NCBI GenBank assembly: GCA_051658085.1
Contig: JBOFLX010000030.1
Location: forward strand, 32,952 to 96,951
DNA length: 64,000 nucleotides
Reading direction: 5' to 3'
Source of the DNA: Waterburya sp.
GTDB taxonomy: Bacteria > Cyanobacteriota > Cyanobacteriia > Cyanobacteriales > Xenococcaceae
Below are positions 10,397 through 28,802 of the stretch, piece after piece (the stretch's first letter is position 1; each line of letters starts with the position of its first letter). The position numbers and the translations under genes are program-made. Under the pieces are notes generated by a model. That model was given only the letters and a program-made list of their open reading frames with translations, had not been told where the DNA came from and did not search any database.

Positions 10397-11140
10397 TCAA
10401 ATAAATAATAAAGGTTTATCTTTTAAAGGTGTAAAAGCTTGAGAATTGAAACGATATAAACTAGCAGGACGACCAGCACCACGACATACTTTAATATTTG
10501 TATCAGATAAAATACCTAGTTTTAATAAACGAGAACGGAAATTAGAATAGTCGGAAAAGTTTTCACCTAAAATTGTACAGTAAAGTTGATAAACTTCATT
10601 TAAAGTAAATTCTGAGGGTAAAACCTCAAAAGCGATCGGACTGTATTGTAGTTTATTTTTTAGTCGATTCCAGCCATATTTTAAAATTTGATCGTGGTCA
10701 AAAGCTAACTTTGGTACTTGATTTACTTTATACCAAGCAATGTTATCAATAGACTTAGTAATAATTTTGGCATCCTCATATCTTACTAAAGCAAAATAAC
10801 TAACAGATAAATATCTCACTCCAAAACTATTAGGATTTTCTCTCGGATCTCTACCAGGATCTCCAAAAGAATATAGCTGTTCTAGATATAAATTATCTAC
10901 CTTGATTTTTTCGGCTAAAGTACGATATGCAGCATCAGTTAAGGATTCTCCTTGGCGGACTAATGTACCTGGTAAACTCCAATAGTTTTTAAAAGGTTCT
11001 TCTTTTCTTTTATCTAGTAAAACTAATACTCGATTATAAGTAGTATCGACAGAAAAAATAACATTGTCTACTTCTACTTTAAAATCAGCTAAACTTTTAA
11101 CTTTATTGCCATCTGGTTGGCTAGTAAAATTAATTTTCAT
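10397..11140 (-). CDS. nrtR: Nudix-related transcriptional regulator NrtR (Nudix-like domain + C-terminal winged HTH)
   Basis: 247 aa; degenerate Nudix box GESLTDAAYRTLAEKIKV; C-terminal LAFDHDQIL...NFRSRLLKLGIL...GRPASLYRF resembles NrtR wHTH; co-oriented downstream of nadD and pncB. Confidence 0.55.
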   Translation of the reverse strand: MKINFTSQPDGNKVKSLADFKVEVDNVIFSVDTTYNRVLVLLDKRKEEPFKNYWSLPGTLVRQGESLTDAAYRTLAEKIKVDNLYLEQLYSFGDPGRDPRENPNSFGVRYLSVSYFALVRYEDAKIITKSIDNIAWYKVNQVPKLAFDHDQILKYGWNRLKNKLQYSPIAFEVLPSEFTLNEVYQLYCTILGENFSDYSNFRSRLLKLGILSDTNIKVCRGAGRPASLYRFNSQAFTPLKDKPLLFI

Positions 11141-11199
11141 ACTTATTACTTAAAAAATAGTCTCATTTGTATTTGTAGCAATTATTTAAGTTACTGATA

Positions 11200-11784
11200 T
11201 TAGCTAACTTTAGTATTTTTGTTATATAAATTTTGTTGCCAAATATAATTTTGCACGGTAGGGGTAATTAAACTTTGATCTTTTTGTAAACGATAAGTGC
11301 TAGAAGCAGCTTTCGGCGCATTTAAAGTTGCGATCGCGCATCTACCGCCAAGTTGTTTTAATGCTGCTAAGTCTAATTGACTTATCGTATATCCCCGACG
11401 AGGAATAATTAATATCTTTACTTGTTTTAATAATTCTTCAATGCGATACCAACTATTTATTTGCTCTAAAATATCTGCACCTATGACTAAGTGAAACTCT
11501 ACTTCTTTTCCCCATTTTTCCCTGGCTTTATTGACTGTAATTAAAGTCCGACGATCGCTTAATTCTGGATGCAAACTAATATTATTATCAGCAAGATTAA
11601 GATCAGCGATCGTTAACTTCAGCATTTCTGTCCGATCTACTAAGGGAGTTTGATGTTCTTTAAAAGGATTATCCGATGCCCAAACTACCACGCGATCGTA
11701 ATGCTTAGATAACCATTGGAGTATCGTTTGATGTCCTATTGTTGGGGGATCAGCACTTGTACCAAATAGAGCAATTTTGTCCAT
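11200..11784 (-). CDS. nadD: nicotinate-nucleotide adenylyltransferase
   Basis: 194 aa; N-terminal FGTSADPPTIGH (HxGH nucleotidyltransferase motif). Confidence 0.8.
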   Translation of the reverse strand: MDKIALFGTSADPPTIGHQTILQWLSKHYDRVVVWASDNPFKEHQTPLVDRTEMLKLTIADLNLADNNISLHPELSDRRTLITVNKAREKWGKEVEFHLVIGADILEQINSWYRIEELLKQVKILIIPRRGYTISQLDLAALKQLGGRCAIATLNAPKAASSTYRLQKDQSLITPTVQNYIWQQNLYNKNTKVS

Positions 11785-11791
11785 TATCCAA

Positions 11792-13156
11792 TTAATTAGC
11801 TTTCTTAACTACAGACTGACGCAAAGCCTCTAGAGAATTAGAAATATTAACATTAAAAGCTTGAGGGTTGCTGATTTGTCGAATACTGTCAGGTAGACTA
11901 GCAACAGAATGAGCAGTGCGTTGCTGAATTATATCTAAACTCTCTGATGACTTTAGCCTTTTACCAGACTGCATGACAATTTCTAATAAACTTACCTCAT
12001 TAGCTTCGGGAATTTCAGTTTTTAAACCTAATCTATCTGACTGTACTTGACCATTGACTACAGTACGAAAAATTTGTTTGCAACCTGGATAAGTAAGTTT
12101 ATTAATAGACTGTTTCATTGTGGGAATATGAGCGATTTCTACTAATTTGTATACCCCGTTAACTGGCTCACCTGTAACTAATTTAGTACCAATGCCATAG
12201 CCATCTATCGACGCACCTTGTTCCTGTAATTCGGCAATTTTCCACTCATCTAAGTCCCCACTGACAAAAATGCTAGTTTCAGGTAAATGACAACGTACTT
12301 TGAGCGATAATTCTGCTAAATCTCCTGAATCAATTCGCACTCCTGTGACACTAATCATTCCAGTATCTACTTGGGCTTGTAAACGTTTTGCTGCTGCTAT
12401 GGTGTCGTAAGTATCTATTAATAAAGGTGCTTGGGGAAAATAGGTTTGAAAGGCTTTAAAAGCGTCATCTTCGCTGCCTACCAAGGTATTAATTGCCATT
12501 ACCAATGCATGAGCCATTGTGCCTCTCGGTTGTTCTCCCAGTTTTAAGGCTGCTAAAACATTAGATGTACCATCAAATCCTGCTGCTAAGGCTGCTCTAG
12601 CTGCCCAAATTGCTCCTTGAGGACTAAATGCTCTCCTCGTGCCAAATTCCAGAATATTCGCTGTTGTTCCCGCAATGTCTCTAATTCTTGCTGCTTTAGT
12701 GGCAATGAGAGTTTGATAGTTAATTGTATTTAGTAAATAGGTTTCTACAAGCTGTGCTTGCCATAAGGGAGCTTCGATTCTTAAAATTGGCTCTTTCGCA
12801 AAAACTGCACTGCCTTCTGGTACTGCCCAAACATCCCCTGTAAAGCCTCCTGACTTCAACAACTGCCAAAATTCTGGAGGTGCATGATTGAAAATCTCTG
12901 TAGCTTTTAAGGCTTGAATTTGTTCATCGCTAAAATTTAGCTGTTCTAAATATTCCAGTACTTGAGTTAACCCCATTGCAATTAAATAACCAAAATTTTG
13001 GGGTAAACGTCTTGTAGATAACTCAAAGCTAGCTTGGGTATTGGCAATTCCTTCTCCTGCATAACAGGCAGCCATTGTTAATTGATATAAGTCAGTCAAT
13101 AGAGAATAGTCTTGAGGATTTACATTTAACTCATTTTTTGGTATATTTTCTTTCAT
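11792..13156 (-). CDS. pncB: nicotinate phosphoribosyltransferase
   Basis: 454 aa; N-terminal YSLLTDLYQLTMA and internal FGTRRA motifs typical of NAPRTase family. Confidence 0.8.
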   Translation of the reverse strand: MKENIPKNELNVNPQDYSLLTDLYQLTMAACYAGEGIANTQASFELSTRRLPQNFGYLIAMGLTQVLEYLEQLNFSDEQIQALKATEIFNHAPPEFWQLLKSGGFTGDVWAVPEGSAVFAKEPILRIEAPLWQAQLVETYLLNTINYQTLIATKAARIRDIAGTTANILEFGTRRAFSPQGAIWAARAALAAGFDGTSNVLAALKLGEQPRGTMAHALVMAINTLVGSEDDAFKAFQTYFPQAPLLIDTYDTIAAAKRLQAQVDTGMISVTGVRIDSGDLAELSLKVRCHLPETSIFVSGDLDEWKIAELQEQGASIDGYGIGTKLVTGEPVNGVYKLVEIAHIPTMKQSINKLTYPGCKQIFRTVVNGQVQSDRLGLKTEIPEANEVSLLEIVMQSGKRLKSSESLDIIQQRTAHSVASLPDSIRQISNPQAFNVNISNSLEALRQSVVKKAN

Positions 13157-14488: not shown

Positions 14489-14938
14489 ATGAACGAACAT
14501 TGCATGATTCCTATAATGAAAACACCTAGAGATTATCAAGCTTATCGGATTAGTCCTAAAGATAGTAATCGTCTAGCAATCATTTTTGATCCCAATATTG
14601 CCAATGACTCCTTAACTGTCTGCGTAGAAATTTATGATGTTGGTGGTGCAACTCCTCACAATCGTCATGATTTTGCTGTCGAGATGTTTTTTATTCTTAA
14701 AGGGGAAGGTATAGCAGTCTGTGATGGTAAAGAAATTCCTTTTCATAGTGGAGATAGCATTTTAATCCCCAAAACAGGCACTCATTATCTAAAAAATACA
14801 GGTTCCGAACGTTTATATACTTTATGTATGATGGTTCCTAATGAAAACTTTTCGGAGTTGATCCGTAGCGGTACACCTGTAACTTTAGATGAACAAGATT
14901 TACAAGTTTTATCTCGTGTCAGTAACAATTTAGATTAA
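14489..14938 (+). CDS. cupin domain protein
   Basis: 149 aa; HxH...E...H-like metal site (HNRHDFAVEMFF, GTHY) in beta-barrel context. Confidence 0.55.
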   Translation: MNEHCMIPIMKTPRDYQAYRISPKDSNRLAIIFDPNIANDSLTVCVEIYDVGGATPHNRHDFAVEMFFILKGEGIAVCDGKEIPFHSGDSILIPKTGTHYLKNTGSERLYTLCMMVPNENFSELIRSGTPVTLDEQDLQVLSRVSNNLD

Positions 14939-17808
14939 TAACTAATACCTGTGTTACACACATTATTACCTTTTGGCTGTGATGGAGAACTATTAGATTT
15001 ATGAGCAACTAATTCTACAATACCGCGATCGTTAACTATCCATCCCTGAGCCTCGACAATTTCTGCCTTTTTTTCTATGGAGGCGTTTTGCACACTACTA
15101 CTACTACCTTCATCTGCCCCTAAACTTGTGGGTTCGACCAAATCAACCTCACTCATTTCTCCCTCTCGCGCTTGATTAGGACTCGGTGCAATTCCCCCTT
15201 TACCCGTCACAATAAATTCACTTCCCTGTCCTTGTTGACAGAAATTTTGCTCTACTAATCCTGCTACATCGATTATTTCTACGGGTAATTCTTCTAATCC
15301 TTCTGTAGGGTTAACATCAAGTTCGTTAATATTGACTGTTCCATCTAAACCAAAGTTGGAAGAAGCATCCAGATCATTAGTATTGTTTATGGGTGTAGAA
15401 CCTCTTTCTTCAATACCAAAGATGGCATTAGTGAAAAGCTCGATATTACCTCCATTTCCTTGGGCAGCAGAAGCAACAATATCGTTATTTTGGTTAGGAA
15501 AAGCAATAACAAAATTAGCGTCTATATTTATATTGCCACCATCAGCATTTTTCAGTGCTTGAGCAGAAATTGTACTGCTATTTCGTAAGCTCAAATTATC
15601 AGCAATTTGTAGAGTAATATTGCCACCTGTATTGCCTGCTATTCCATTTCCTTGATTGGTGGCATTGATTAAAGCATTGTCGCTAATAGACAAGTTTCGT
15701 GTCGAGATCTTGATATTACCGCCAGAACCTGTAGAATTAGCATCTGTATTAGCGAATATACCACTAGCAGCACCTTCATTGCGCACAATTGGTCTACCTA
15801 TTCGCGCTAATCTTTCAGGGAAAGTAGGATCGCTGCCAGTGATTGTAGTGTTTTCAGTTGTATTGATTGAAATATTACCTGCATCACCGCTACCACGACT
15901 GGTTGTGAGAATTTGTCCGCCACCCTGAACTTGCAAGGTGTTAACGTCTAGGTTGATGTCCCCACCCCTTCCTTGCCCACTAGTGCTAGCACCTATAACA
16001 GCCCCATTTTCAACCGTTAAAGAATTGGCTGTAATTTTTATCTCTCTGCCGTTGCCATTAGAGCCTGCTTCCACCGTGCTAAAAGCACTACTAGAATAAC
16101 CATTTGTACCAGTGCCATTAAAGGAAACTGCACCAGTAGCATTAATTGTCACGCTGCCTGCGTCTTTTGCTACAAAATTACTAACCAAGAGTGTTGCACC
16201 ATTGGTAACATTGAGCGAGTCAGTATTGATCACAATCGCTCCACCATTTCCACTCGCTAACTCAAAAGCTGCACTACCTATACCACTTGAGCCATTGCTT
16301 CCTGCTCCGTCCAAGAAAACTTCCTTGGCATTAACTGTTATATCGCCAGCATTTCCTTGAGCATTGGTATGAGCAACTATCGTAGCACCATTTAATAAAG
16401 ACAGTTTGGGTGCATTAATAGCAATTGTGCCACCGTTACCAACAGCATCAGCAAACACTTGGCTACCAATACCACTGTTTGTATCGCTTATTAAAACATT
16501 ATCACTGGCACTAATTGCTATACTGCCTGCATTTCCGCGCCCAACACTATGAGAAACTATGGTAGCACCGTCTAGTAAAGATACCTTTGGTGCATTAATA
16601 GCAATTTGACCACCGCTACCAGTCCCAAATAGACTGGCTGAGATAACGGTTTCTTCACTATTACCTGCACCATCATAAGAAAACGTATCGCTAGCATTAA
16701 TTATGATGTTACCTGTATTTCCCTGTCCAAAGCTGTTGCCAGAAATTATGGCACCGTTATTTAAAAAAAGCGATCGCCCTGTCATCTCAACATTGCCACC
16801 ATTACCAATTCCTTGTTCGTATACTTCATTAGCAATTGTGCTGTTATCTAGGGTAATATTCCCACTAGCATTTAAGGTGATATCTTCAGCTTGTATCCCT
16901 GAGAATTGGAAATTTGCATCGATACCCGCCTGAATATTACTACCAGAGAGAATATCAATATTATTGGCGTTTATGGCAATACTGCCTTGTCCATTACCAT
17001 TGACTGCCAGGTTAGTAGTATCTGTGAGACTAATATTCTGAAAATTTGTAACGTCTTGATAATCCAATAACCAGCCAGTATTTGCCGACGTGAGATTAAC
17101 TAAACTATTCTCGGCAACGCTACCCAATTCTATCCGTCCACTAGTAGTTTTTAGGGTTGCGCCTTTTAAATTAATATCTCCACCCACTAAGGCTAAGGTT
17201 TGATCTGGTTGCACCTGTAAATTAGCTTCTGTATCAGTAATACTAGACTCGCTCGCTTGTTGACCATTTCCTTGTACTTGAATCGAACTAGAATTTGCTC
17301 CAAATTGTAAACCGATAGGGATATTAATAGATAACAAGGGTGTATTTTGAGGATTTTTTGCACTAAATTCACTACCATCGGCAAATTGTAAACTCTCAGC
17401 AGATGTACCAAGAAAAGAACCACCTATATTTAATTGGGCATTTTCACCAAATACAATTCCATTGGGATTCATTAAAAATAGATTGGCTGCACCATTAGCC
17501 TTAATTAAACCATCAATATTAGAAATTGCACCACCTGTAACTCGGCTGATAATGTTTTGAATATCTACGCTGTTGTTAAAAAATGCTTCTGAGCCTGTAG
17601 GGACTGAAAAATCTTGAAAACTGTGAAATAAATTGCTACCTGCTTGAGTTCCACCCGTAATAATTCTAGTATTCTCCTCTAATCTAACATTGGAATTATT
17701 TGGCAGAGTTGCATCTGGGGTAATTTGGGCTACTGAATTATTAGCGTAAAAAGCGATCGCGCCTGTGATGGCAATGTTTAAAGTCTTTAACCAGTTCAAA
17801 TGCATCAT
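14935..17808 (-). CDS. filamentous-haemagglutinin N-terminal (TPS/haemagg_act) domain exoprotein, beta-helical repeat protein
   Basis: 957 aa; signal peptide, then NTRIITGGTQAGSNLFHSFQDFSV...ANLFLMNPNGIVFG (TPS secretion domain NPNG motif), long G/N/S-rich beta-helix repeats, conserved C-terminal FIVTGKGGIAPSP motif. Confidence 0.8.
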   Translation of the reverse strand: MMHLNWLKTLNIAITGAIAFYANNSVAQITPDATLPNNSNVRLEENTRIITGGTQAGSNLFHSFQDFSVPTGSEAFFNNSVDIQNIISRVTGGAISNIDGLIKANGAANLFLMNPNGIVFGENAQLNIGGSFLGTSAESLQFADGSEFSAKNPQNTPLLSINIPIGLQFGANSSSIQVQGNGQQASESSITDTEANLQVQPDQTLALVGGDINLKGATLKTTSGRIELGSVAENSLVNLTSANTGWLLDYQDVTNFQNISLTDTTNLAVNGNGQGSIAINANNIDILSGSNIQAGIDANFQFSGIQAEDITLNASGNITLDNSTIANEVYEQGIGNGGNVEMTGRSLFLNNGAIISGNSFGQGNTGNIIINASDTFSYDGAGNSEETVISASLFGTGSGGQIAINAPKVSLLDGATIVSHSVGRGNAGSIAISASDNVLISDTNSGIGSQVFADAVGNGGTIAINAPKLSLLNGATIVAHTNAQGNAGDITVNAKEVFLDGAGSNGSSGIGSAAFELASGNGGAIVINTDSLNVTNGATLLVSNFVAKDAGSVTINATGAVSFNGTGTNGYSSSAFSTVEAGSNGNGREIKITANSLTVENGAVIGASTSGQGRGGDINLDVNTLQVQGGGQILTTSRGSGDAGNISINTTENTTITGSDPTFPERLARIGRPIVRNEGAASGIFANTDANSTGSGGNIKISTRNLSISDNALINATNQGNGIAGNTGGNITLQIADNLSLRNSSTISAQALKNADGGNINIDANFVIAFPNQNNDIVASAAQGNGGNIELFTNAIFGIEERGSTPINNTNDLDASSNFGLDGTVNINELDVNPTEGLEELPVEIIDVAGLVEQNFCQQGQGSEFIVTGKGGIAPSPNQAREGEMSEVDLVEPTSLGADEGSSSSVQNASIEKKAEIVEAQGWIVNDRGIVELVAHKSNSSPSQPKGNNVCNTGISY

Positions 17809-17840
17809 CCTGAACCCATGTTTACTTAAATATTAAAAGC

Positions 17841-17900
17841 GAAAAGTGAATCATTTAGATCGCACCTGAACAAATACCCGAATTTTTCCCCTGTAAATCT
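17841..17900. promoter_or_regulatory. conserved ~60-bp motif (copy 1) in divergent intergenic region between the two TPS-exoprotein genes
   Basis: gaaaagtgaatcatttagatcgcacctgaacaaatacccgaatttttcccctgtaaat; ~88 percent identical second copy at 20563-20626. Confidence 0.4.
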
Positions 17901-17934
17901 TATTTAGTAAATTACAGAATGTTAACAAACCCTA

Positions 17935-20541
17935 TTGAGGAGTATAGATTTGAAACGACGCTTTTCTCTATCCTGGTTTTTTGCTATTTGTCTGGCTACA
18001 AGTTTACTTCCAAGCAATTCTGCTTCAGCCCAGGTTACTTCAGATGGCACGACTGGAACTGTAGTTGATGCTAATGGCAATAGTTTTGAAATTAATGCAG
18101 GTACTAGAAGCGGAGACAATCTGTTTCATAGTTTTGAAGAATTTTCAGTCCCTAACGGTGGAGAAGCAGTTTTCAATAACGCTGTAGATATCAGTAATAT
18201 CTTGTCTAGGGTTACAGGGGGAGAGATTTCTAATATCGATGGTTTAATTGAGGCACAGGGCGGTGCTAATCTATTTTTGATCAACCCTGCTGGGATTATT
18301 TTTGGTCAAGGTGCAAGTTTATCTATTGGTGGTTCGTTTTATGGTAGTACTGCGGATAGTATTGTGTTTGAAGATGGGGAATTTAGCGCAGTCAATAATT
18401 TAAATCAACCAATACTGACTATTAACGCTCCCATTGGTTTGAATTTGAGAGATAATCCTAATGGTATTGCTGTCAATGGTAATAACAATGGTACAGAACC
18501 TGCTGATTTTTCTGCACTATCTGTACTCGAAGATCAAAGTCTCTATTTGATTGGTGGCAACATCGAGCTGAACAATGCAACATTATCAGCACTTGAGGGC
18601 AATATAACATTGGGAGGCTTACAGACTTCGGGAACTGTTGATATTAATGAAAATGGCAACTTAAATTTTCCTGAAAACTTGGCTAGAGGAAATATCTCTT
18701 TAGATAATTCTAGTGTTTCTCTTGGTTTTGGCAGCAATAATGGTGAAGGTGGGACTATTAATCTTAATGGCAATAATATAGAGTTGCTGAATAATAGTAT
18801 GCTAATGAACAGTATAGATGCTAATTCTGGTTCTACCGAAGCTCAAGCAGGAAATATTAACCTTAATGCGACTGAAACAATAAATTTAAGTGGAAGAAGC
18901 GTTATACGAAATCTAGTCGAGAGTGGCTCAGAGGGGAATAGTGGTAATTTAGAACCAGGAGCAATAAGCAATGGTGGTAATGTAGATATTACAACAGCTA
19001 ATCTTTCTATTGACAATGGCGCATCTATTAGTGCTGGTACTTTGGGCGAGGGAGATGGCGGAGATGTCACAATTAATGCGACTGAATCAATCACTCTTGA
19101 TGGTACAACTCCTGATGGTCAATTTCGCAGTGTAATTACCAGTCAAGTAGAATCAGGAGCAACAGGCAATGGTGGTAATGTAGATATTACAACAGCTAAT
19201 CTTTCTATTGACAATGGCGCATTTATTAGTGCTGGTACTTTGGGAGAGGGAGATGGCGGAAATGTTTTAATTAATGCGACTGACTCAATCACTCTTGATG
19301 GTACAACTCCTGATGGTCAATTTCGTAGTGTAATTGCTAGTCAAGTAGAATCAGGAGCAATAGCCAATGGTGGTAATATAGATGTTACAACAGCTAATCT
19401 TTCTATTGACAATGGCGCATTTATTAGTGCTGGTACTTTGGGAGAGGGAGATGGCGGAGATGTCACAATTAATGCGACTGAATTAATCACTCTTGATGGT
19501 ACAACTCCTGATGGTCAATTTCGCAGTGTAATTGCCAGTCAAGTAGAATCAGGAGCAATAGGCAATGGTGGTAATGTAGATATTACAACAGCTAATCTCT
19601 CTCTTGACAATGGCGCATTTATTAGTGCTAGTACTTTGGGAGAGGGAGATGGCGGAAATGTTTTAATTAATGCTGAAAAATTAATCACTCTTAATGGTAG
19701 AACTCCTGATGGTCAATTTCCCAGTGTAATTGCTAGTGAGGTAAACCAGGAAGCAATAGGCAATGGTGGTAGTGTTGAGATTACAACAGCTAATCTCTCT
19801 CTTGACAATGGCGCAGCAATTAGTACTAGTACTGTCGGAGAGGGAAATGGTGGAGATTTAACTTTCAATATAGGCGATCGCTTGACTCTAGAAGAAAACA
19901 GTGATATTTCAGCAGAAGTTATTGGAACTAATGCCAATGGAGGCGACATAACTATCAATGCTGAAAATGGTTTTGTAGTTGCTTTTCCCAATCAAAATGA
20001 AGGTAATGGCAGCGATTTTATTACTAGATCTCCAGAAGGTAAAGGTGGAAATATTGAGATGAATGCTCAAGGGGTTTTGGGTTTAGAAGAAGGGAATGCT
20101 AATCTTGCTAACAATATCAACAATATTGATGCTAGTGGAACTGTTGATGGTGTGGTAAAGATTAATACTCCTAATTCAGATGCAATTGAAGGAACAACTC
20201 AACTACCTAATAATCCTGTAGAAGCTGGAGAAACTGTTACTCAAGCTTGTGTTTCTGGTCAGGGTGTTGATGGTAATAATCTGATAGTTAGTGGTAAAGG
20301 TGGCATACCTCGTCAACCTATTGAACCGTTAGTTGCCGATTCAATTTATGTTAACGGTCAGACAATACAATCAACATCTCCTCAGCCAGAAGCTATTAAA
20401 CCAATAAAAACTAGTAAAGGTGATATTATTCCTGCCCAGGGAGTCGATATTACAAAAGATGGAAGGGTTATTCTAACAGCCTATCCCACTAGTAATAATT
20501 CTAGAACTCCAAAAACATCCACTAATTGCGGTAAATCATGA
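17935..20541 (+). CDS. filamentous-haemagglutinin N-terminal (TPS/haemagg_act) domain exoprotein with internal 66-aa tandem repeats
   Basis: 868 aa; signal peptide, GDNLFHSFEEFSV...ANLFLINPAGIIFG TPS domain, five 66-aa repeats, C-terminal LIVSGKGGIPRQP motif shared with the upstream paralogue. Confidence 0.8.
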   Translation: MRSIDLKRRFSLSWFFAICLATSLLPSNSASAQVTSDGTTGTVVDANGNSFEINAGTRSGDNLFHSFEEFSVPNGGEAVFNNAVDISNILSRVTGGEISNIDGLIEAQGGANLFLINPAGIIFGQGASLSIGGSFYGSTADSIVFEDGEFSAVNNLNQPILTINAPIGLNLRDNPNGIAVNGNNNGTEPADFSALSVLEDQSLYLIGGNIELNNATLSALEGNITLGGLQTSGTVDINENGNLNFPENLARGNISLDNSSVSLGFGSNNGEGGTINLNGNNIELLNNSMLMNSIDANSGSTEAQAGNINLNATETINLSGRSVIRNLVESGSEGNSGNLEPGAISNGGNVDITTANLSIDNGASISAGTLGEGDGGDVTINATESITLDGTTPDGQFRSVITSQVESGATGNGGNVDITTANLSIDNGAFISAGTLGEGDGGNVLINATDSITLDGTTPDGQFRSVIASQVESGAIANGGNIDVTTANLSIDNGAFISAGTLGEGDGGDVTINATELITLDGTTPDGQFRSVIASQVESGAIGNGGNVDITTANLSLDNGAFISASTLGEGDGGNVLINAEKLITLNGRTPDGQFPSVIASEVNQEAIGNGGSVEITTANLSLDNGAAISTSTVGEGNGGDLTFNIGDRLTLEENSDISAEVIGTNANGGDITINAENGFVVAFPNQNEGNGSDFITRSPEGKGGNIEMNAQGVLGLEEGNANLANNINNIDASGTVDGVVKINTPNSDAIEGTTQLPNNPVEAGETVTQACVSGQGVDGNNLIVSGKGGIPRQPIEPLVADSIYVNGQTIQSTSPQPEAIKPIKTSKGDIIPAQGVDITKDGRVILTAYPTSNNSRTPKTSTNCGKS
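18970..19960 (+). repeat. intragenic tandem repeat, 5 units of 198 bp (66 aa), central units nearly identical
   Basis: unit starts at 18970, 19168, 19366, 19564, 19762 (aatggtggtaatgtagatattacaacagctaatct...). Confidence 0.8.
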
Positions 20542-20562
20542 TAATCGCTGTGTTATTAAGGA

Positions 20563-20626
20563 TGAAAATTGCAGCATTTGGATCGCACCTGAATAAATAC
20601 CCAAATTTTTCCCCTTTAAATTCTTT
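20563..20626. promoter_or_regulatory. conserved ~60-bp motif (copy 2) downstream of TPS gene / upstream of DUF4278 ORF
   Basis: gaaaattgcagcatttggatcgcacctgaataaatacccaaatttttcccctttaaat. Confidence 0.4.
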
Positions 20627-20669
20627 TTGCTGAGTCACACAATAATGACAAATATACTTTTAAAACAAA

Positions 20670-20849
20670 ATGAGATTACATTTTTTAGGACAAACATACC
20701 ATACTACTGATCAACTAGTAGAAACTATTCCGTCAGATCTTACTGCTCATTTTCGAGGACAAAGTTATCAACTCCGCCGTCCAATTCAAACTTATCAACC
20801 TCATTTCTGTATCCGAAAGTATCGTGGTATTCTTTATTTGAAAAGCTAA
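20670..20849 (+). CDS. DUF4278-like small protein (59 aa), absent from the supplied ORF track
   Basis: hand-translated: MRLHFLGQTYHTTDQLVETIPSDLTAHFRGQSYQLRRPIQTYQPHFCIRKYRGILYLKS; duplicated (F/Y)RGxxY motif typical of cyanobacterial DUF4278 peptides. Confidence 0.5.
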   Translation: MRLHFLGQTYHTTDQLVETIPSDLTAHFRGQSYQLRRPIQTYQPHFCIRKYRGILYLKS

Positions 20850-20915
20850 AAAAATATAAATAATGCATTCAATAAAGTTACTTGGCATTTATATTTTGGA
20901 TAGCTAAATAAAAAA

Positions 20916-21371
20916 TTGAGGGAGGTATTTACGAGCATGAAAAATAATAAATCTAATTCCTTTACCGAACGTGAATTTGCAGAATATCATCAAGTAAATA
21001 GTATTCCCCGAAATATATTGCTTATGGAAGCAGAATGTTTCAATACGGTAAAAAATACAACAAATAATACTGAAGCATCAGAAAAGGGAATTCTTTTCAG
21101 TTTAGGATTTCTCGCTACATTGTTATTTTTCAGTGGGCTTCAATTACATTACTCTTTAAATATAGCTCCAGCTAAATTGGAAATTAATAAAACCCAAAAA
21201 GTGTCTGCTTCTAATACAAAAATATTGGCTACAGGAATTACCTTAAAAGAATTTAATAAAGTACAAAATTACCAAAAAATCAATTATTCAACTAATGAAA
21301 TTAGTAATTTAGTAAGTAACAATATAAGGCTTCAAGCTGCGCAGAATACTATTGCTCAAGGTAAATTTTAG
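20916..21371 (+). CDS. hypothetical N/K-rich low-complexity protein with one hydrophobic segment
   Basis: 151 aa ORF, AT-rich, weak. Confidence 0.3.
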   Translation: MREVFTSMKNNKSNSFTEREFAEYHQVNSIPRNILLMEAECFNTVKNTTNNTEASEKGILFSLGFLATLLFFSGLQLHYSLNIAPAKLEINKTQKVSASNTKILATGITLKEFNKVQNYQKINYSTNEISNLVSNNIRLQAAQNTIAQGKF

Positions 21372-21619
21372 TTGAATGCGTAATTACTGATTAACCAAGC
21401 TGCTATCATGGCTGAGTATGAGGGTCAAAAGTAAAAAATTTGAATTCTAAATTTAGAATTCAGAAAAAAAGTAGGTATACAAATTTATTACCTATTACTT
21501 ATTACTTTTATCGGTGTTGCATAGCTACGGGATGATTTAAAACAATTAGGTTTAATAAAAGCTATAAGCTATAAGCGATCTTGTTATAAGCTAATCGCTT
21601 TAAAACAGGTTGAATTCTC

Positions 21620-21674
21620 CCAGTCTCTTAGTCTCCTAATCCCCCAGTCCCCTAGTCTCTCAGTCCCCCAGTCG
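21620..21674. repeat. STRR-like heptamer array (CCCCAGT/CTCTTAG variants)
   Basis: cagtctcttagtctcctaatcccccagtcccctagtctctcagtcccccagtc. Confidence 0.6.
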
Positions 21675-21762
21675 ACCTAAGCCACCCTATAATGATGCAA
21701 CGCCCTTTTATCCCTCAGATTATTCCGCATAACTAGCAACTTACGCTATTAAGTGTTCGAGA

Positions 21763-22581
21763 GTGATGAAAGTATCAAAAGTATCAAAAAAAAATAAACA
21801 TCAAAAAATTAATCATAATTTTGATTGGATTGCTTTTATAAACAGCTTGGTTTTGTTATTAATCCCAATCACAATCGTCTTTGTTGATGGGCAGACTGCA
21901 ATTGCGAATGAAAAGACAAAAAGCAATACTTTTGTTCTATTTCAACCACCGCCAGAAGAAGAACAGCCAGAAGAGACGGAGGGAGCAGCTTCACGGCAAA
22001 ATGGCAAGTGTTCTGGGGATTTATTTGCTGCTCAACAAGATAGTGCTGATGTTAGTCATAAATTGACTGCTATTGTACCCGATCGCAACTATGGATTAAC
22101 AACTGCGGAGCGTCCTAATCTTTGGGTTTATTTACCTCAAACTTCGGCACAGCAAGCAATTTTAAGTATCAAAGAAGCAGGTACTAGACCTCATTGGCAA
22201 CAGTCAATTGATTTAACAGGCGAGGCTGGGATTATGAAAATTAAACTAGCTCAAGATGCCCCTGCTTTAAAAATTGGTCAAAACTATCAATGGGCGCTAA
22301 TCTTAGTGTGCGGTAATCAACCAACTCCCAATGATCCTGTTGTTGCTGCTTGGATTGAGCGTATTAGTAAATCGCAAATTACGACTATGAATAAACAGCA
22401 GTTTGATTCTACTAAATTAGACAAGGCTGCTTGGTATGCACGACAAGGTATTTGGTATGATGCGCTGAATATCTTAGCTTCAGAAAAATCGTCTTTAAAT
22501 AATGGGAACGATCTATGGGCTAAATATCTGCAATCTGGTGGTTTAGCTGAATTTGCTAATCAAGCAATTATTAATTACTGA
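21763..22581 (+). CDS. DUF928 domain protein (signal-anchored, secreted)
   Basis: 272 aa; N-terminal TM/signal, then conserved core PNLWVYLPQTSA...QNYQWALILVCG...WYARQGIWYDAL consistent with cyanobacterial DUF928 family. Confidence 0.6.
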   Translation: MMKVSKVSKKNKHQKINHNFDWIAFINSLVLLLIPITIVFVDGQTAIANEKTKSNTFVLFQPPPEEEQPEETEGAASRQNGKCSGDLFAAQQDSADVSHKLTAIVPDRNYGLTTAERPNLWVYLPQTSAQQAILSIKEAGTRPHWQQSIDLTGEAGIMKIKLAQDAPALKIGQNYQWALILVCGNQPTPNDPVVAAWIERISKSQITTMNKQQFDSTKLDKAAWYARQGIWYDALNILASEKSSLNNGNDLWAKYLQSGGLAEFANQAIINY

Positions 22582-22807: not shown

Positions 22808-23377
22808 CTAACTAGCCACGCTACCTATTACACCCTTCATAGCTGCAATTCCTTGTTCGATGCTAGCCCAAAGTCCCATATCTGGTTCTATACCAGCTAT
22901 TTCTCGTGTTCCTACAAAATAGAGAACTCCTTTGAGAACTTCTTGATGGGCGCGATTTTCAAAGTTAACTTTATTGAGAGGTTCGACTGCATCTTGAAGT
23001 TTGTCATCAAGAGACTGAGCAACTTTATGAATCACTAAGCCAGTCATAGTCTGCTGATGTTTTAGTAACTCAAACTGAAAGAATTTATCATAAGATGTAA
23101 GTTCCGAACCATTCATCATTTTGTTGATTGCCTCGGCGTGTTTTTGAGTTATGTCGCGAGGTTGAGCGGTACTTCCAACTTCAGAAATGGCTTTGTCAAT
23201 AGAGTTAAGGTTTTCGCGATCGCTTGTAATCATTTTTTCTAGTCGCTCGCGGATTGTATCGTCATTTGTTTCGCTCATTAGTTTTTGACCGCTTTCAAGC
23301 AAAACTTCTTGAATAAGTTTTAAATCCGCTAGTTTTGTTTCTAGGTTTGTCATATCAGCCATCGCTGTTATCTCCAA
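22808..23377 (-). CDS. hypothetical all-helical protein
   Basis: 189 aa ORF; no recognised motif. Confidence 0.35.
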   Translation of the reverse strand: MEITAMADMTNLETKLADLKLIQEVLLESGQKLMSETNDDTIRERLEKMITSDRENLNSIDKAISEVGSTAQPRDITQKHAEAINKMMNGSELTSYDKFFQFELLKHQQTMTGLVIHKVAQSLDDKLQDAVEPLNKVNFENRAHQEVLKGVLYFVGTREIAGIEPDMGLWASIEQGIAAMKGVIGSVAS

Positions 23378-23609: not shown

Positions 23610-26273
23610 CTATTGATAACTGGTTAGTTTTTTAGTTATTAAGGATGAATTGTCTTTGTTTTCCGACTGTTTTAAATATTCTAAAGCAATTCTGCCAACA
23701 ACAGGATGATTATGATATTCAATTAATAGTAATTCTAATGTATGTTGAAATTTAACGTGATCGCGTTGTTTATTTCTAATAATTATTGCCGTAATTATTG
23801 TTAGAATTAGTGTTAGTAATGCAGGTACAACAGGTAGCCAGTAACCCGCTAAAAACGCTTGATAACAAACAATAATTAAAATTATACTAGTTAAGCAAAT
23901 ACTGGAAATAATCAGGATTGTCTTTAATATTTGCCAAGCAATAATTACACCAGTAATTCCCCACAAAAATATCCAAAGAGATTCTAAAAGTTGGTTATGA
24001 GTGTGAAGTAAAGGACGATTATTAATCGCTGCATTAATTATTTGACTGCTAACATTAGCATGAATAAAAACTCCAGGCATTTTTTGAGGAGAACGAAACC
24101 AACCTTGACTATAAGGTGTATAAAAAAAATCTCTCAAACTTTCAGCAGTAGAACCAATAAAAATTAAGCGATCGCGTATGTCTTCGGTAGCAATCTCATT
24201 CTTTAGTACCTTGGTTAAAGAATACTGCTTAAAATTAGCTTTTGTCCCCCAAAAATTGAGTAATATCTGATATCCTTTAGCATCTGCACCGATATATCCG
24301 CCACTGTGAGGGGTAAATCGCTCAAAAACAGCTTTTCCTAAACGATAGCGATGATTATTAATTGGTTCAAGCTTGATTTTTTGCTCTTGGAGATAATGTA
24401 GAGCTAATTGAGTACCTAAACTAAAGCGTGTTTGTTGATCACTTCCCACTGTTGATAATAAAGCACGACGTATTTTACCATCACTATCTAATACTTGATC
24501 GCTAAACCCGACTTGTTTTTCACTAACATTAACTGAGGGAGGAATAGCATCACCAATTACTTTTTCTACTACATATAAATTGGGAGTAGAGTTATAAATT
24601 GCGTTTAAATCTTGGTTTCCTGGTTGTACAGGTAAATCGCGATAAAGATCTAGAGCGATCGCGCTTGGTTGATGTGTTTTGATATTTTTAATTGCTGTAG
24701 CTAAAATGCGATCGGAAATTGGTAATTGTCCTATTGTATTAATATCTTGTTCATTAATAGTAACTACCACAATTCGAGGTTCAATATTATTAGTAAGTCG
24801 CCAAACAAAAAAGCGATCAAGTAAATTCCATTCCCAAGTTTGTAAAATTCCTGTACAGCGTATTAATAAAATCAATCCCGTTACTCCCAAGGCTATCTTT
24901 ACAAGCCACTGCTTACTTAACCGTTGTTTATTGGCTTTTTGTCGTGCTTGTTTTCTGACATTTGCTAATAGTTTGCTTGCTGCTTCTACTGCTGCTAAAG
25001 CTTCTTGAGCTTCTTGTTTAGCCAAGTTTTGACTAGCCACTAAAAACTGATAATCTATATCTGTCAGACTTTTTCCTAATGACCAAGTTAAGGCAGTTTG
25101 TAAATCTTTACCTTTTAGTAAATAATCAGAATTATTAGTAGCAATCCAATCAGCGATCGCCTGACTATAAGGACGTAATTGAGTTAATTGTGCGTCTATC
25201 CAGGCTAGATTAAATACCTTGGCATAAATCGGGTTGGTAACTGATAAATTCCCCTTGCTTTCTATAACTAAACCTGATAAACGCAACTCTATTTGTTCGG
25301 TACTATTACTAACAGGAATTACTTGATTTTGTAAATCTCGATATAATCCTAATAATCGAATAGTCTTGGTAGAATTACGATAACATAGACGATTGCGGAT
25401 AGTTCTTAAATGTTCTGGTTCGTCTTGAGCTTCCCAATCTGTAAGGAAATATTTTTCAACAATTTTATCTATAGTTAATTCATTTTTTTTATTTGTCTCT
25501 TTAACAACCAACTGACATAATTTTTGAGTTAAAAACGGTTGTCCCCCAGTCCAAAATAAAATTTCGCTTAATATTTCTGATGGCTGATCAACTTTATCAA
25601 TCATACCTAACATTAAAGGAGAAGCTTCTACTAAAGTAAATCCTTGTAAGTTTATCCCTTTACCTAGTTCAAAAGGTGATTGATTTTTATCTCTAATTAA
25701 ATCTCTTGGTGCTGCAACTCCTAATAAAGTAAAAGTCAGTCGTTGATAATCACTATTAACCTGACGCTTTTGATAGCAACTATGAATCAGAGCAAAAAAA
25801 TTATCCAATGAAAAAGCTTGACTGAGAACTCGATCTATCTCATCAATAAAAATAACAATATTTTCTTTAACTTCTACTAATAAAACCTCTTCAATAAATA
25901 AATTCAATCGTTGTACAGGTGAAAACAAATCTCTTTTTTCTCGCCACCAATCACGCCAATTAAATTTAAGTTGACAACTACTAACAATCGAACGAACAAT
26001 TCCTGCATACCATTTCTCAATAGTTAAATCTTGCGTCCCCATTCCAGTTAAGTCTACAAATACACAAACATTTCCCTCTGCTTGTAATTTCGACATAGCT
26101 CGAACTCGCAAACTAGACTTTCCCATTTGACGAGAATTTAAAACATAACAAAACTGACCTTGTTTTAAAGCTTTTTCTAACTCGCGATCGGCTTTTCGCT
26201 CTACGTAGCTAGGAGAATTACTAGCTAAACTTCCTCCTACTTGATAAGTAAATATTTGATTATCTTTATTCAT
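23610..26273 (-). CDS. AAA_35-family NTPase fused to transmembrane CHASE2 sensor domain
   Basis: 887 aa; N-terminal YVERKADRELEKAL...LNSRQMGKSSL (AAA-like/AAA_35 P-loop), central TM helix, CHASE2-like LDRFFVWRL...RIVVVTINEQDI...AIALDLYRD, three C-terminal TM helices. Confidence 0.65.
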   Translation of the reverse strand: MNKDNQIFTYQVGGSLASNSPSYVERKADRELEKALKQGQFCYVLNSRQMGKSSLRVRAMSKLQAEGNVCVFVDLTGMGTQDLTIEKWYAGIVRSIVSSCQLKFNWRDWWREKRDLFSPVQRLNLFIEEVLLVEVKENIVIFIDEIDRVLSQAFSLDNFFALIHSCYQKRQVNSDYQRLTFTLLGVAAPRDLIRDKNQSPFELGKGINLQGFTLVEASPLMLGMIDKVDQPSEILSEILFWTGGQPFLTQKLCQLVVKETNKKNELTIDKIVEKYFLTDWEAQDEPEHLRTIRNRLCYRNSTKTIRLLGLYRDLQNQVIPVSNSTEQIELRLSGLVIESKGNLSVTNPIYAKVFNLAWIDAQLTQLRPYSQAIADWIATNNSDYLLKGKDLQTALTWSLGKSLTDIDYQFLVASQNLAKQEAQEALAAVEAASKLLANVRKQARQKANKQRLSKQWLVKIALGVTGLILLIRCTGILQTWEWNLLDRFFVWRLTNNIEPRIVVVTINEQDINTIGQLPISDRILATAIKNIKTHQPSAIALDLYRDLPVQPGNQDLNAIYNSTPNLYVVEKVIGDAIPPSVNVSEKQVGFSDQVLDSDGKIRRALLSTVGSDQQTRFSLGTQLALHYLQEQKIKLEPINNHRYRLGKAVFERFTPHSGGYIGADAKGYQILLNFWGTKANFKQYSLTKVLKNEIATEDIRDRLIFIGSTAESLRDFFYTPYSQGWFRSPQKMPGVFIHANVSSQIINAAINNRPLLHTHNQLLESLWIFLWGITGVIIAWQILKTILIISSICLTSIILIIVCYQAFLAGYWLPVVPALLTLILTIITAIIIRNKQRDHVKFQHTLELLLIEYHNHPVVGRIALEYLKQSENKDNSSLITKKLTSYQ

Positions 26274-26573: not shown

Positions 26574-27314
26574 TTATTTTTTTTGATATCGTTGATATTG
26601 TTTCTCAAATTGTTCTAACATTTCATTGGTTAGAATATCATTTGTATTATTATAATAAACACTTAAATAGTCAAAAATTTCTTTGATGTTAGTGATTCTT
26701 TGCTTTTCATCAGATTCTGGAAATGTATTACTTGACTCAAAAAGAATACGATTTTTTAAATATATACTAAACTCCAATAATATATCTTCGTTAAATTTTT
26801 TTACTTCTTGTAGCGATTGATACAATTGATTACAAGAACGAATACCAGTACTAAGAGCTATGCGCGTATGTTTTGGTGTTTTTGCTTCTGCTGCTGTAAA
26901 ATTTCCGTTTGATTTATGCTGTTCTTGTTTGATATAAGTTATGTTTCGATACCCGTTAATGCAATTATTAACAAATTTTGGAAAAGTATCATAATCAAGA
27001 TAATCGGATAGCATCCAATTTTTGGAACATAGTTGATGCTCGTTTTTGTAACTATTAGACGGACATCCTAACAGAGTGCATGAAGCAGAGGTAACTGCAT
27101 AAAATAAACCAAAATTGTCAATGTTAAAATTACACTTATTACAACCTTGAGGGCAATAATACGAGTCAGGAATTATTGATTGCAAAATTCCTTTATGCCA
27201 AAAACTATTATTAATTTGCAGCCCAATGGAATAAGCTCCAAATAACATAATAAAAAAAAATATAATATATATAGTCACTAAAAAAATAACTGTTTTTTGT
27301 AAATACTTAACCAT
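26574..27314 (-). CDS. hypothetical Cys-rich, N-terminally anchored protein; extremely AT-rich gene
   Basis: 246 aa; one N-terminal TM; about 10 Cys in the ectodomain (CPQGCNKCN, CTLLGCPSN); GC visibly lower than flanks. Confidence 0.4.
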   Translation of the reverse strand: MVKYLQKTVIFLVTIYIIFFFIMLFGAYSIGLQINNSFWHKGILQSIIPDSYYCPQGCNKCNFNIDNFGLFYAVTSASCTLLGCPSNSYKNEHQLCSKNWMLSDYLDYDTFPKFVNNCINGYRNITYIKQEQHKSNGNFTAAEAKTPKHTRIALSTGIRSCNQLYQSLQEVKKFNEDILLEFSIYLKNRILFESSNTFPESDEKQRITNIKEIFDYLSVYYNNTNDILTNEMLEQFEKQYQRYQKK

Positions 27315-27443: not shown

Positions 27444-28802
27444 TTATTCATTAATAAAATAATCACGATATAACTTACAGCGAGGAGATACTAAATTATT
27501 TTGCTGTTTAACTAAACCAAGACTATGTAACTTATAAATTTGTAAAGAATTAAGAGCTACGGGGACATCAGATTTGACCACTGTAGAAAAAACCGAACTA
27601 AGTTCTGGAGATTCATTTAAAATATTAGCTAAACGACGCAAAGGATTACTATAAATTCCCGTCTCTGAAATAGCTGTTTGTAAAAATTGCTCTAAAGTAA
27701 GATTTTGGGTTTTTATCTGATACATTGCCAATCTTACCAAATAAGGATGACCGCCCACCAAATCCATCAATTGCTCGATTTCAGATTGATCCCAATCCAA
27801 CTGATATAAAGATGCTAAGGTGGCTACTTGTGTATAATCAAATTCTTCTAATAAAATTGGTACTCCTGCATTAAAAGGAGATTGATTAATATCTAAAGGA
27901 ATATACACTTCTGTTGAATGAGCTAGGAGTAGTTTTAATCTTGACCAACAATGATAAATTTTGCCCTTTTCGTGCCAACTACGTAACATTCCAAAAAAAT
28001 CTTCAATTACTTCTTCGTAAACAAATAAGCGATCAATATTATCAAAAGCTAAAACAATTTCACTAGTTATTTCCGCCAAAATATAATCTTCAAAATAAAA
28101 CGTACAGTTATCGTTGCTACCGAGAATATCTGTATCCCAATAATGTTGTACCTTATTTTCCAATTTCAACTGACGAGAAACCACTGCGCATAACCAACGT
28201 AGAAGTTTATCCAAATCATTTAGAATTGCTCTTTCGACACTACCAAAATCCAAATATACTGTTGTTTGTGACTGCAAAATTCCTTGTTCAAGAATACGAT
28301 TAACCAAAGAAGTTTTACCCATCCATTTTGCCCCTTTGATCCGAATTAAAGAGCCTGGTTTAATAATTGTTTCATAACAAATCGATTCTATAGGCGTTTG
28401 CGAAGCTAGCGGTACGCATCGCCTAATATAAAAATGAGAGCCTAAAGCAACTGAACCTTCAGGAAAAGTAAGGGTTTCTGTTGATAATTGATGTTGATAA
28501 TTGTTAATATTTGCTTGAATATTTTGCTGCCATTCCCGTTTTAATGCTTCTTTAAAATTTTTCTTTGATACTTTTTCTTGCAAAGCTGTTGACAAAGTTC
28601 CCCATAACTTACTTCCCACATCTTTACTTAAATAGTTACTGGTATAACCTTCAGCTTCGGCAATTTCTTCATAAGTTCGATTATCCCAAGCACCGCGTAA
28701 AATAGTAATCTCTAAATCACTTAAATGCTTTCCTGTATGCCGAAATACCAAATTTTCGGCGGTTTGTTGTGCTTTTTTCCAACTGAATGTATTTAGATTC
28801 AT
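27444..28802 (-). CDS. AAA_35-family NTPase with N-terminal HTH-like (LuxR/sigma-70 region-4-like) domain
   Basis: 452 aa; N-terminal LSDLEITILRGAWDNRTYEEIAEAEGYTSNYLSKDVGSKLW; P-loop IRIKGAKWMGKTSL then Walker B-like VLAFDNIDRL; overall collinear with N-terminal ATPase part of 23610-26273. Confidence 0.6.
   Translation of the reverse strand: MNLNTFSWKKAQQTAENLVFRHTGKHLSDLEITILRGAWDNRTYEEIAEAEGYTSNYLSKDVGSKLWGTLSTALQEKVSKKNFKEALKREWQQNIQANINNYQHQLSTETLTFPEGSVALGSHFYIRRCVPLASQTPIESICYETIIKPGSLIRIKGAKWMGKTSLVNRILEQGILQSQTTVYLDFGSVERAILNDLDKLLRWLCAVVSRQLKLENKVQHYWDTDILGSNDNCTFYFEDYILAEITSEIVLAFDNIDRLFVYEEVIEDFFGMLRSWHEKGKIYHCWSRLKLLLAHSTEVYIPLDINQSPFNAGVPILLEEFDYTQVATLASLYQLDWDQSEIEQLMDLVGGHPYLVRLAMYQIKTQNLTLEQFLQTAISETGIYSNPLRRLANILNESPELSSVFSTVVKSDVPVALNSLQIYKLHSLGLVKQQNNLVSPRCKLYRDYFINE

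Follow-up and report, generated by a model that had tools for sequence, protein, structure and literature searches.

A total of 64,000 nucleotides of Waterburya sp. (Xenococcaceae; assembly GCA_051658085.1, contig JBOFLX010000030.1, positions 32,952 to 96,951) were examined in the present study. The sequence analysed was this 64-kb stretch only, hereafter the window, and all functional statements are computational. At its centre of interest lies a divergent pair of genes, tpsA1 and tpsA2, encoding large exoproteins of the two-partner secretion (TPS, type Vb) class, and downstream of tpsA2 are genes for a small DUF4278 protein, a membrane protein encoded by an open reading frame (ORF) here named ORF151, and an exported DUF928 protein. 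A first-pass annotation of this DNA had stopped at position 22581, whereas the gene set described here runs to 28802 and includes a membrane sensor with AAA_35 and CHASE2 domains and a second AAA_35 protein with a helix-turn-helix (HTH)-like region (Table 1). We consider it rather probable that the two TPS genes form one arm of a conserved cyanobacterial cell-envelope module, two components of which, the outer-membrane transporter TpsB and a TPR-CHAT protease, have been lost or relocated here.

Table 1 Features of the tpsA locus, with positions in the window (nt, nucleotides; aa, amino acids; TM, transmembrane segment)
Feature	Position	Strand	Description
Cupin	14489..14938	+	PF07883; convergent with TpsA1, overlapping its 3' end by 4 nt; followed by bioB
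TpsA1	14935..17808	-	957 aa; signal peptide, TPS domain, beta-helical repeats, conserved C-terminal tail
TpsA1 tail	14938..15312	-	Last 125 aa: C857 ... FIVTGKGGIAP ... EAQGWIVNDRGIVELVA ... C951
Divergent intergenic region	17809..17949	.	Short, AT-rich; between both tpsA starts
TpsA2	17935..20541	+	868 aa; signal peptide, TPS domain, beta-helix with near-identical 66-aa repeats, TpsA1-type tail
Tandem repeat in TpsA2	18950..19854	+	198 bp, 4.6 copies, 91% matches (Tandem Repeats Finder, TRF); 66-aa beta-helix units
TpsA2 tail	20164..20541	+	C772 ... LIVSGKGGIP ... AQGVDITKDGRVILTA ... C865; local TpsA_C profile matches full length
DUF4278 small protein	20670..20849	+	59 aa; PF14105 E=1.6e-9; first gene of the DUF4278-ORF151-DUF928 unit
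ORF151	20916..21371	+	Small single-pass membrane protein, no family, one TM; likely start 20937
DUF928 exported protein	21763..22581	+	E=4.3e-46; signal peptide or anchor, motif F-x-PP...P..T-x-G-A-A-S-R...C, beta-sandwich and helical domain
ORF189	22808..23377	-	Helical, no family; lineage-specific insert between the DUF928 and CHASE2 genes
AAA_35-CHASE2 sensor	23610..26273	-	887 aa; PF05226 E=3.6e-65 (residues 465-777), PF14516 E=1.2e-29
ORF246	26574..27314	-	Cys-rich, N-terminal membrane anchor (hydrophobic N-terminus), no family; lineage-specific insert
HTH-AAA_35	27444..28802	-	452 aa, cytoplasmic; PF14516 E=6.4e-134; Walker A MGKTS; N-terminal HTH-like region

Both exoproteins carry a TPS domain behind a Sec signal peptide, the latter judged by eye (...AITGAIAFYANNSVA/QI in TpsA1 and KRRFSLSWFFAICLATSLLPSNSASA/QV in TpsA2). 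The domain matches PF05860 with 236.8 bits in TpsA1 (E=4.6e-70, residues 27-278) and 184.4 bits in TpsA2 (E=4.8e-54) against a cutoff of 33.5, and TIGR01901 with 91.8 bits (E=1.8e-26) and 86.8 bits, respectively, against a cutoff of 29.1. The TPS motif is NPNG at residue 114 of TpsA1 (LMNPNGIVFG) and NPAG at residue 117 of TpsA2 (LINPAGIIFG). The passenger is predicted to be beta-helical, with an AlphaFold 2 (AF2) model of the last coils that is all-beta at a predicted local distance difference test (pLDDT) score of ~90 and a repeat-unit profile that matches 6-7 times per protein. The first-pass annotation had assigned a TPS domain, the NPNG/NPAG motif and beta-helical repeats to both proteins, and the haemagg_act/TPS profile matches, far above threshold in each N-terminal domain, bear this out. 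A profile of the TPS domain searched against the sequences of the PDB found HxuA (E=8e-10), EtpA and HMW1 as best relatives; phmmer with full-length TpsA1 gave no match among the same sequences, and the TPS-domain profile was needed instead.

The two genes are arranged head-to-head, and their products are old paralogues that align by BLASTP at E=9e-108, identity being 40% over the N-terminal part and 31% from there to the C-terminus; the paralogy claimed in the first pass is thereby upheld. Orthologues of TpsA1 in other genomes are 94%, 74%, 71% and 66% identical to it, all closer than TpsA2, whereas an exact-sequence look-up of TpsA1 in public assemblies gave no match. The start of TpsA2 is likelier a TTG at 17950, preceded by GGAG 7 nt upstream and equivalent to the start from which an orthologue is called in a related metagenome-assembled genome (MAG), than the codon at 17935, and the starts of the two genes are accordingly spaced by 126-141 bp. 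A promoter and terminator scan gave no more sites than in shuffled sequence, and promoter matches in the intergenic region were weak.

The related MAG (Waterburya sp., GCA_051660945.1) provides a close comparison, as its contig L089 (contigs and loci other than the window are given L numbers) is 93-95% identical in nucleotide sequence to window positions 14897-21435 and holds the same divergent tpsA pair, the DUF4278 gene and an ORF151 orthologue. Matches of the window to this contig in blastn are staggered at 198-bp offsets, and the MAG orthologue of TpsA2 has 93% identity and falls 81 aa short in the alignment, 5 of these owing to its later start, consistent with approximately one repeat fewer. 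Filament length therefore appears to vary between strains. The ratio of nonsynonymous to synonymous substitution rates (dN/dS) against the MAG orthologues was 0.20 for TpsA1 and 0.40 for TpsA2, at a dS of 0.08-0.13, which indicates that both genes are under purifying selection and are not decaying.

Each protein ends in a conserved tail. In TpsA1 and TpsA2 the sequence GKGGI begins at residues 869 and 787, respectively, such that a shared (T/S)GKGGI stands ~85 residues before each C-terminus, and the tail is bracketed by the sole cysteines of the mature proteins (C857/C951 and C772/C865). In an exhaustive search, the final 125 aa of TpsA1 matched 2,316 representative clusters at E<=1e-3, 426 of them at E<=1e-10, and in all clusters the match sits at the extreme C-terminus. 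A TPS domain was present in 91 of 102 long proteins with tail matches, and the remainder look N-terminally truncated. The cysteine pair is kept in 113/120 and 139/150 homologues at a spacing of about 93-97 residues. When the last 230 residues of 120 homologues were aligned, the final beta-helix coils (...SDITASS..G..G.V.INTPDVDP) were found to precede the tail, the consensus of which is GL.ELP...VD...LIA...C.....S.F..TG(R/K)GGLP.P, a variable linker, IVEA.GW..N..G.V.L.A .... C. The AF2 model is confident to the end of the beta-helix and models the tail poorly save for a hairpin, EAQGW...VELVA. The first-pass annotation had noticed that the two proteins share a C-terminal motif (FIVTGKGGIAP in TpsA1, LIVSGKGGIP in TpsA2), which is indeed there, and had taken it for a recognition tag common to the pair; it instead belongs to a Cys-bracketed tail of ~125 aa that is not special to these two proteins.

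With a cysteine pair at the extreme C-terminus, the only one in the mature protein, TpsA1 and TpsA2 are reminiscent of HMW1 and HxuA. The Cys loop of HMW1 is short, whereas those of TpsA1 and TpsA2 are much longer and include TG(R/K)GGLP and the beta-hairpin. In HMW1 and HxuA a disulfide-closed C-terminal domain stays periplasmic and locks the passenger to TpsB (PMC5422565), and the tail looks more like a periplasmic anchor or processing domain of this type than like a short recognition tag. The comparison is one of functional analogy only, and homology between these tails is not claimed.

No TpsB or CHAT gene accompanies the pair. Pfam scans for ShlB, POTRA_2 and CHAT found no match in the scanned window ORFs of at least 238 aa, and locally built profiles, run by hmmsearch over all six frames of the 64 kb, gave no TpsB match at E<1, in agreement with the first-pass annotation. 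The lone CHAT match of the six-frame search, 8.6 bits over 60 residues inside ORF151, is best read as chance. ORF151 occupies the position at which Nostoc clusters carry TPR-CHAT, and was considered as a CHAT remnant and rejected, given the low score, a blank TPR profile and homologues of its own upstream of DUF928 in five relatives. At the other end of the locus, the cupin gene marks the spot where relatives carry TpsB and/or TPR-CHAT. Its product is 78-79% identical to cupins whose genes abut the DUF4278-ORF151-DUF928 unit on Hyella and Pleurocapsa contigs (L011:2272-2703 and L013:692-1129) with no TPS gene between, so that the TPS pair looks like an insertion here or a deletion there.

Gene neighbourhoods were surveyed in 80 loci among the matches listed, anchored on DUF928 with one locus per genome record and reaching ~10 kb to either side of it; all are cyanobacterial apart from one dubious bin. 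Full flanks, defined as at least 8 kb on each side of DUF928, were available for 37 of the 80, of which 35 contained CHASE2 adjacent to DUF928, 25 a TPS gene, 22 CHAT and six TpsB. TpsB was missing within reach in 20 of the 25 TPS-containing loci with full flanks. As TpsB beside TPS is a minority arrangement, its absence here is ordinary, and the statement in the first-pass annotation that such genes usually travel with a TpsB transporter does not hold for these loci. A missing CHAT domain is rarer (9/25, three of these merely cut by the locus edge), yet recurs in the nearest Xenococcaceae loci, L014 and L018.

TpsA1 orthologues of 66-74% identity with matching gene order occur in L002, L004, L005/L006 and L007. 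The common order on contigs carrying such orthologues (L002, L004, L005/L006) is HTH-AAA_35 > AAA_35-CHASE2 > < DUF928 ... TPS (one to three copies) > TPR-CHAT >, and in L002, L004 and L005 the TPR-CHAT gene starts 5-12 bp past the stop codon of the TpsA1 orthologue. The full set is found in a single 5.6-Mb genome (L088 and L090) as <TPR-CHAT <TpsB <TPS <TPS and >DUF4278 >DUF4278 >80 aa >260 aa >DUF928, followed by <442 aa <AAA_35-CHASE2 <HTH-AAA_35. Order and orientations in the window are alike, and everything is present save TpsB and TPR-CHAT; the differences are that TpsA2 is inverted, ORF189 and ORF246 are inserted, and the cupin gene and then bioB replace TpsB and CHAT. A five-gene cluster, TpsB > TPS > TPR-CHAT > DUF928 > < AAA_35-CHASE2, occurs mainly in Nostoc (L027, L031, L034-L036); it answers to the company of TpsB, CHAT and DUF928 described in the first-pass annotation, but is a minority arrangement.

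These neighbourhoods place the window locus within a widespread cyanobacterial module with a predicted core of exported DUF928 and a CHASE2 membrane sensor, to which one to three tail-bearing TpsA and an exported TPR-CHAT are the usual additions and TpsB a less frequent one. Because complete relatives carry TpsB and CHAT, the window copy is a reduced variant of this module, which is built from known families. No description of the TPS-CHAT-DUF928-CHASE2 linkage was found in the literature searched; CHASE2 and DUF928 are mentioned in passing as neighbours in Nostoc punctiforme (PMC5587647). As far as sequence can tell, TpsA1 and TpsA2 have every attribute of a type Vb TpsA save an operon-encoded TpsB. 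They share a signal peptide, TPS domain, NPNG/NPAG motif and beta-helical passenger with the FhaB/FhaC, ShlA/ShlB, HxuA/HxuB, EtpA/EtpB and HMW1/HMW1B systems, and ShlB/POTRA_2 transporters of the matching family exist in relatives. Unlike in those systems, tpsB is usually not beside tpsA in the module, several tpsA paralogues may occupy one locus, and the proteins have their own ~125-aa tail. The module also differs from the TPS operons described in a review (PMC5422565) in its linkage to DUF928, CHASE2 and exported TPR-CHAT.

The first-pass annotation had allowed that the missing partners might be encoded elsewhere, and for TpsB the related MAG lends support to this. Its contig L087, which is without similarity to the window, carries two tandem ShlB/POTRA_2 TpsB genes (2197-3912 and 4026-5681), one product being 70% identical to the module-embedded TpsB of L088 and the other a 38% paralogue. 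Pleurocapsales abound in TpsB genes of this family, in some systems one TpsB transporter secretes several TpsA (PMC5422565), and 23 filamentous haemagglutinin (FHA)-family genes have been counted in Waterburya agarophytonicola (PMC8580901). TpsB supplied in trans is therefore the most economical reading, under which the locus would be a reduced copy that relies on a TpsB encoded elsewhere. The same suggestion for CHAT did not find comparable support. As a separate observation, the TpsB pair of L087 adjoins PALP and ThiS genes, and a PALP gene also lies within the module in L005/L006.

Both neighbours named in the first-pass annotation, DUF4278 and DUF928, were recovered, and DUF4278 > ORF151 > DUF928 forms a conserved unit in Pleurocapsales. 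DUF4278 occupies the equivalent position in L007, L010, L011, L013-L016, L018, L089 and L090, and homologues of ORF151 (33-39% identity) lie directly upstream of DUF928 in L007, L011, L013, L016 and L018; the MAG orthologue of ORF151 is 83% identical, with a dN/dS of 0.41. A short CT-rich repeat with ~7 copies of TCTCCCAG-like octamers (21616-21673) fills part of the gap between ORF151 and DUF928. In several Oscillatoriales (L046, L055, L057, L058, L060-L063, L066, L067 and L071) an N-terminal DUF928 motif, F..PG..AP.NT.GGG.RG, is repeated in tandem 3-6 times ahead of the folded domain, a beaded arrangement that recalls a linear motif for recognition or cleavage.

The sensor protein consists of an N-terminal AAA_35 NTPase (Walker A MGKSS, Walker B FIDEID), placed in the cytoplasm by hydropathy, and a CHASE2 domain placed in the periplasm between one TM (residues 458-476) and three TMs (762-832). 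Orthologues 59-72% identical to it adjoin DUF928 in L002-L018. The separate 452-aa AAA_35 protein has orthologues of 59-78% identity that carry precomputed matches to PF26355 (HTH_VMAP-M9); the Pfam scan of the window protein did not detect an HTH, and the label rests on these matches of the orthologues. Across lineages the CHASE2 partners of DUF928 carry GGDEF, SpoIIE/PP2C, adenylate/guanylate cyclase, PAS-cyclase or hybrid histidine kinase modules, and further partner modules are kinase-receiver-cyclase, an N-terminal CHAT and, as in the window, AAA_35. A predicted periplasmic pair that stays constant while outputs are swapped is the signature of a signalling receptor. The window protein resembles known CHASE2 receptors in its periplasmic CHASE2 between one and three TMs, and other cyanobacterial DUF928-linked CHASE2 proteins have classical outputs; it differs in having an N-terminal AAA_35, which is unusual as the cytoplasmic module, no classical output and a separate HTH-AAA_35 partner.

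In L077 (6935-9361) and also L073, L078, L079, L081 and L086, an N-terminal cytoplasmic region of ~330-430 aa precedes CHASE2, and in L077, the only one scanned, Pfam CHAT matches this region at E=1e-13. A CHAT domain ahead of CHASE2 makes a caspase-like module possible on either side of the membrane, and caspase-CHASE2 fusions have been noted by Kaur et al. 2021 (PMC8195603).

The TPR-CHAT proteins of the module are predicted to be catalytically intact extracytoplasmic proteases. An N-terminal hydrophobic segment was present in 34 of 37 compared with none of 14 cytoplasmic controls, and the catalytic His and Cys motifs (HLATHG and SACQTA) are invariant. Such N-terminal signal peptides or anchors imply that CHAT in the module acts outside the cytoplasm. 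HetF of Anabaena and the TPR-CHAT of type III-E CRISPR systems are cytoplasmic; they are like the module proteins in the catalytic His and Cys that the latter keep, and unlike them in the N-terminal signal peptides or anchors, and the window differs further in having no CHAT gene. HetF is a demonstrated protease (PMC9457339). Two apparent fusions were not used: one of a TPS domain with CHAT (L073:216-5159) is probably an ORF-calling artefact across genes, and one of a TpsA tail with TPR-CHAT (L041:3-3791) is cut by a contig end.

From the identities of these components, their predicted locations, their conserved linkage and the purifying selection on both tpsA genes, a mechanism can be proposed. 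TpsA1 and TpsA2 would be exported by Sec and then cross the outer membrane via a TpsB encoded elsewhere, one TpsB possibly serving several TpsA. The tail, closed by a disulfide between its only two cysteines, would stay in the periplasm and hold the filament on the cell, as in HMW1 and HxuA, and there would meet DUF928 and the CHASE2 domain, as well as the CHAT protease in those loci that have one. An event at the surface filament would be relayed inward by binding and/or proteolysis to become a CHASE2 signal. In the window the end point of this relay may be AAA_35 oligomerisation with the HTH-AAA_35 regulator, and in other species cyclic di-GMP (c-di-GMP), cyclic AMP (cAMP), histidine kinase, PP2C or caspase-like outputs. 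We infer the supply of TpsB in trans, the disulfide and periplasmic retention of the tail, any cleavage and the direction of information flow.

In its full form, this reading holds that TpsA filaments, exported TPR-CHAT, DUF928 and a CHASE2 receptor make up an undescribed outside-in envelope signalling pathway, in which the filament would report contact or damage (by a surface, neighbour, grazer or phage), proteolysis and/or DUF928 binding would switch CHASE2, and outputs would be interchangeable, the window being a CHAT-less version with TpsB in trans. We put it forward tentatively, as a possible rather than a likely account. Several points weigh against the module and mechanism as proposed above. 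TG(R/K)GG does not always keep its basic residue (TGTGG, TGAGG and TGRSG variants occur), which weakens the case for a universal Arg/Lys-specific cleavage site. The pLDDT of the tail model falls below 55 after about residue 115, a Foldseek search of the tail against the PDB gave no match at E<=0.001 and returned generic beta-solenoids only, and both the tail disulfide and the periplasmic location are predictions. The TpsB genes cited in support lie on a short contig (5.7 kb) from another genome, that of a binned MAG, and a CHAT partner was not located for this lineage; CHAT is likewise missing from L014 and L018 within the survey's reach of ~10 kb, so that the module may work without it. The survey used simple ORF calls and locally built profiles spot-checked against Pfam, and the local CHAT profile is less sensitive than that of Pfam and missed a divergent N-terminal CHAT. 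Finally, the literature searched yielded no experimental work on any component of the module.

The main rival to the signalling pathway uses the same parts. It takes the filaments as plain adhesins or matrix proteins, with AAA_35-CHASE2, assisted by DUF928 as an accessory, sensing a cue and controlling tpsA transcription through HTH-AAA_35, such that no information passes from filament to sensor. In Pleurocapsales the AAA_35-CHASE2 gene invariably has an HTH-bearing AAA_35 gene as its neighbour, which fits this account, as does the description of CHASE2 as a small-molecule receptor domain (PMC8195603). FHA-family genes of Waterburya have been read as adhesion genes (PMC8580901), and a phage-resistant Nostoc substrain had a mutation in a protein with an FHA N-terminal domain that was assigned to the cell-surface class (PMC10811720). 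We nevertheless regard it as rather unlikely, as it leaves unexplained both the linkage of an exported, catalytically intact TPR-CHAT and DUF928 to TPS genes and the conserved Cys-bracketed filament tail, and CHASE2 in most other lineages has c-di-GMP, cAMP, a kinase or a phosphatase as its output and not a DNA-binding protein.

The first-pass annotation had also raised a reduced or alternative exoprotein module. The reduction is supported by the complete relatives, whereas an alternative mechanism is not called for where neighbourhoods without TpsB are normal. In its strong form, a self-sufficient module, the TpsA proteins would have become independent of a dedicated TpsB or CHAT and would stay periplasmic or leave through a general Omp85 machine. 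The absence of both partners from 64 kb, and from ~10 kb around the Xenococcaceae loci L014 and L018, could be read in this way. We judge it improbable, as the TPS domains are intact, far above threshold and under purifying selection, it is normal for TpsB to be absent from the neighbourhood, also where it is encoded elsewhere, and the near-identical MAG encodes two TpsB genes. To our knowledge, there is no precedent for the export of a TPS-domain protein without TpsB.

It is less probable still that the locus is a decaying remnant in which the TPS genes drift to pseudogenes after the loss of TpsB and CHAT. Two components of the complete module are missing, the lineage-specific inserts ORF189 and ORF246 lie within it, and the repeat copy number of TpsA2 differs between strains. 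Against this, neither ORF is truncated, each having its signal peptide, TPS domain and tail, the dN/dS values of 0.20 and 0.40 (dS 0.08-0.13 against the MAG strain) argue for constraint, and the MAG keeps the same arrangement. A pair of contact-dependent inhibition toxins with downstream immunity genes, for which the TPS domains, long beta-helical passengers and multiple paralogues of CdiA/CdiB/CdiI and a small ORF after each large gene (DUF4278 after TpsA2) might speak, is hardly credible, as TpsA1 and TpsA2 have no polymorphic toxin tip, no toxin or immunity family match was found, the C-terminus is among their most conserved parts (2,316 clusters), DUF4278 is a conserved family that stays with the DUF928 unit also in loci with TPS genes of opposite orientation, and the gene after TpsA1 is a convergent cupin. 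None of nine window proteins had a PADLOC match that would point to anti-phage defence.

Membership of ORF189 and ORF246 in the module is doubtful. ORF189 gave no match in Pfam, NCBIfam or PADLOC and ORF246 no family match, and neither has a counterpart in the related loci inspected. The Pfam scan of window ORFs of at least 238 aa otherwise identified ClpB, NAD-salvage genes, bioB, RPE65, a Band 7 protein, NdhA-like and SbtA-like proteins, and others. Just upstream of bioB is a compact NAD-salvage cluster (10397-13156, minus strand) of NAPRTase, a cytidylyltransferase-like (NadD-type) gene and a Nudix-NrtR regulator. The window also contains genes for a DUF3747-SLH outer-envelope protein (38392-39645, plus strand), an Hpt-domain protein (45441-46352, minus strand) and a GAF-GAF-adenylate/guanylate cyclase (55163-57517, minus strand).

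Taken alone, the window carries a modest message, since the lack of TpsB is nothing out of the ordinary and that of CHAT is a reduction at the level of the lineage, and interest lies in the module as a whole more than in this locus. In many cyanobacteria few large genes are as numerous as those for TPS-domain "filamentous haemagglutinins", which are routinely annotated as adhesins. The present analysis indicates that thousands of TPS genes have a Cys-bracketed tail in common, and that alongside stands a DUF928-CHASE2 sensor pair with interchangeable outputs, a combination that looks like an envelope signalling system. The tail and its linkage to DUF928-CHASE2 provide a concrete, testable context for DUF928 and AAA_35, both of unknown function, and for CHASE2, an orphan sensor, and suggest that type Vb secretion can form part of a signal-transduction pathway.

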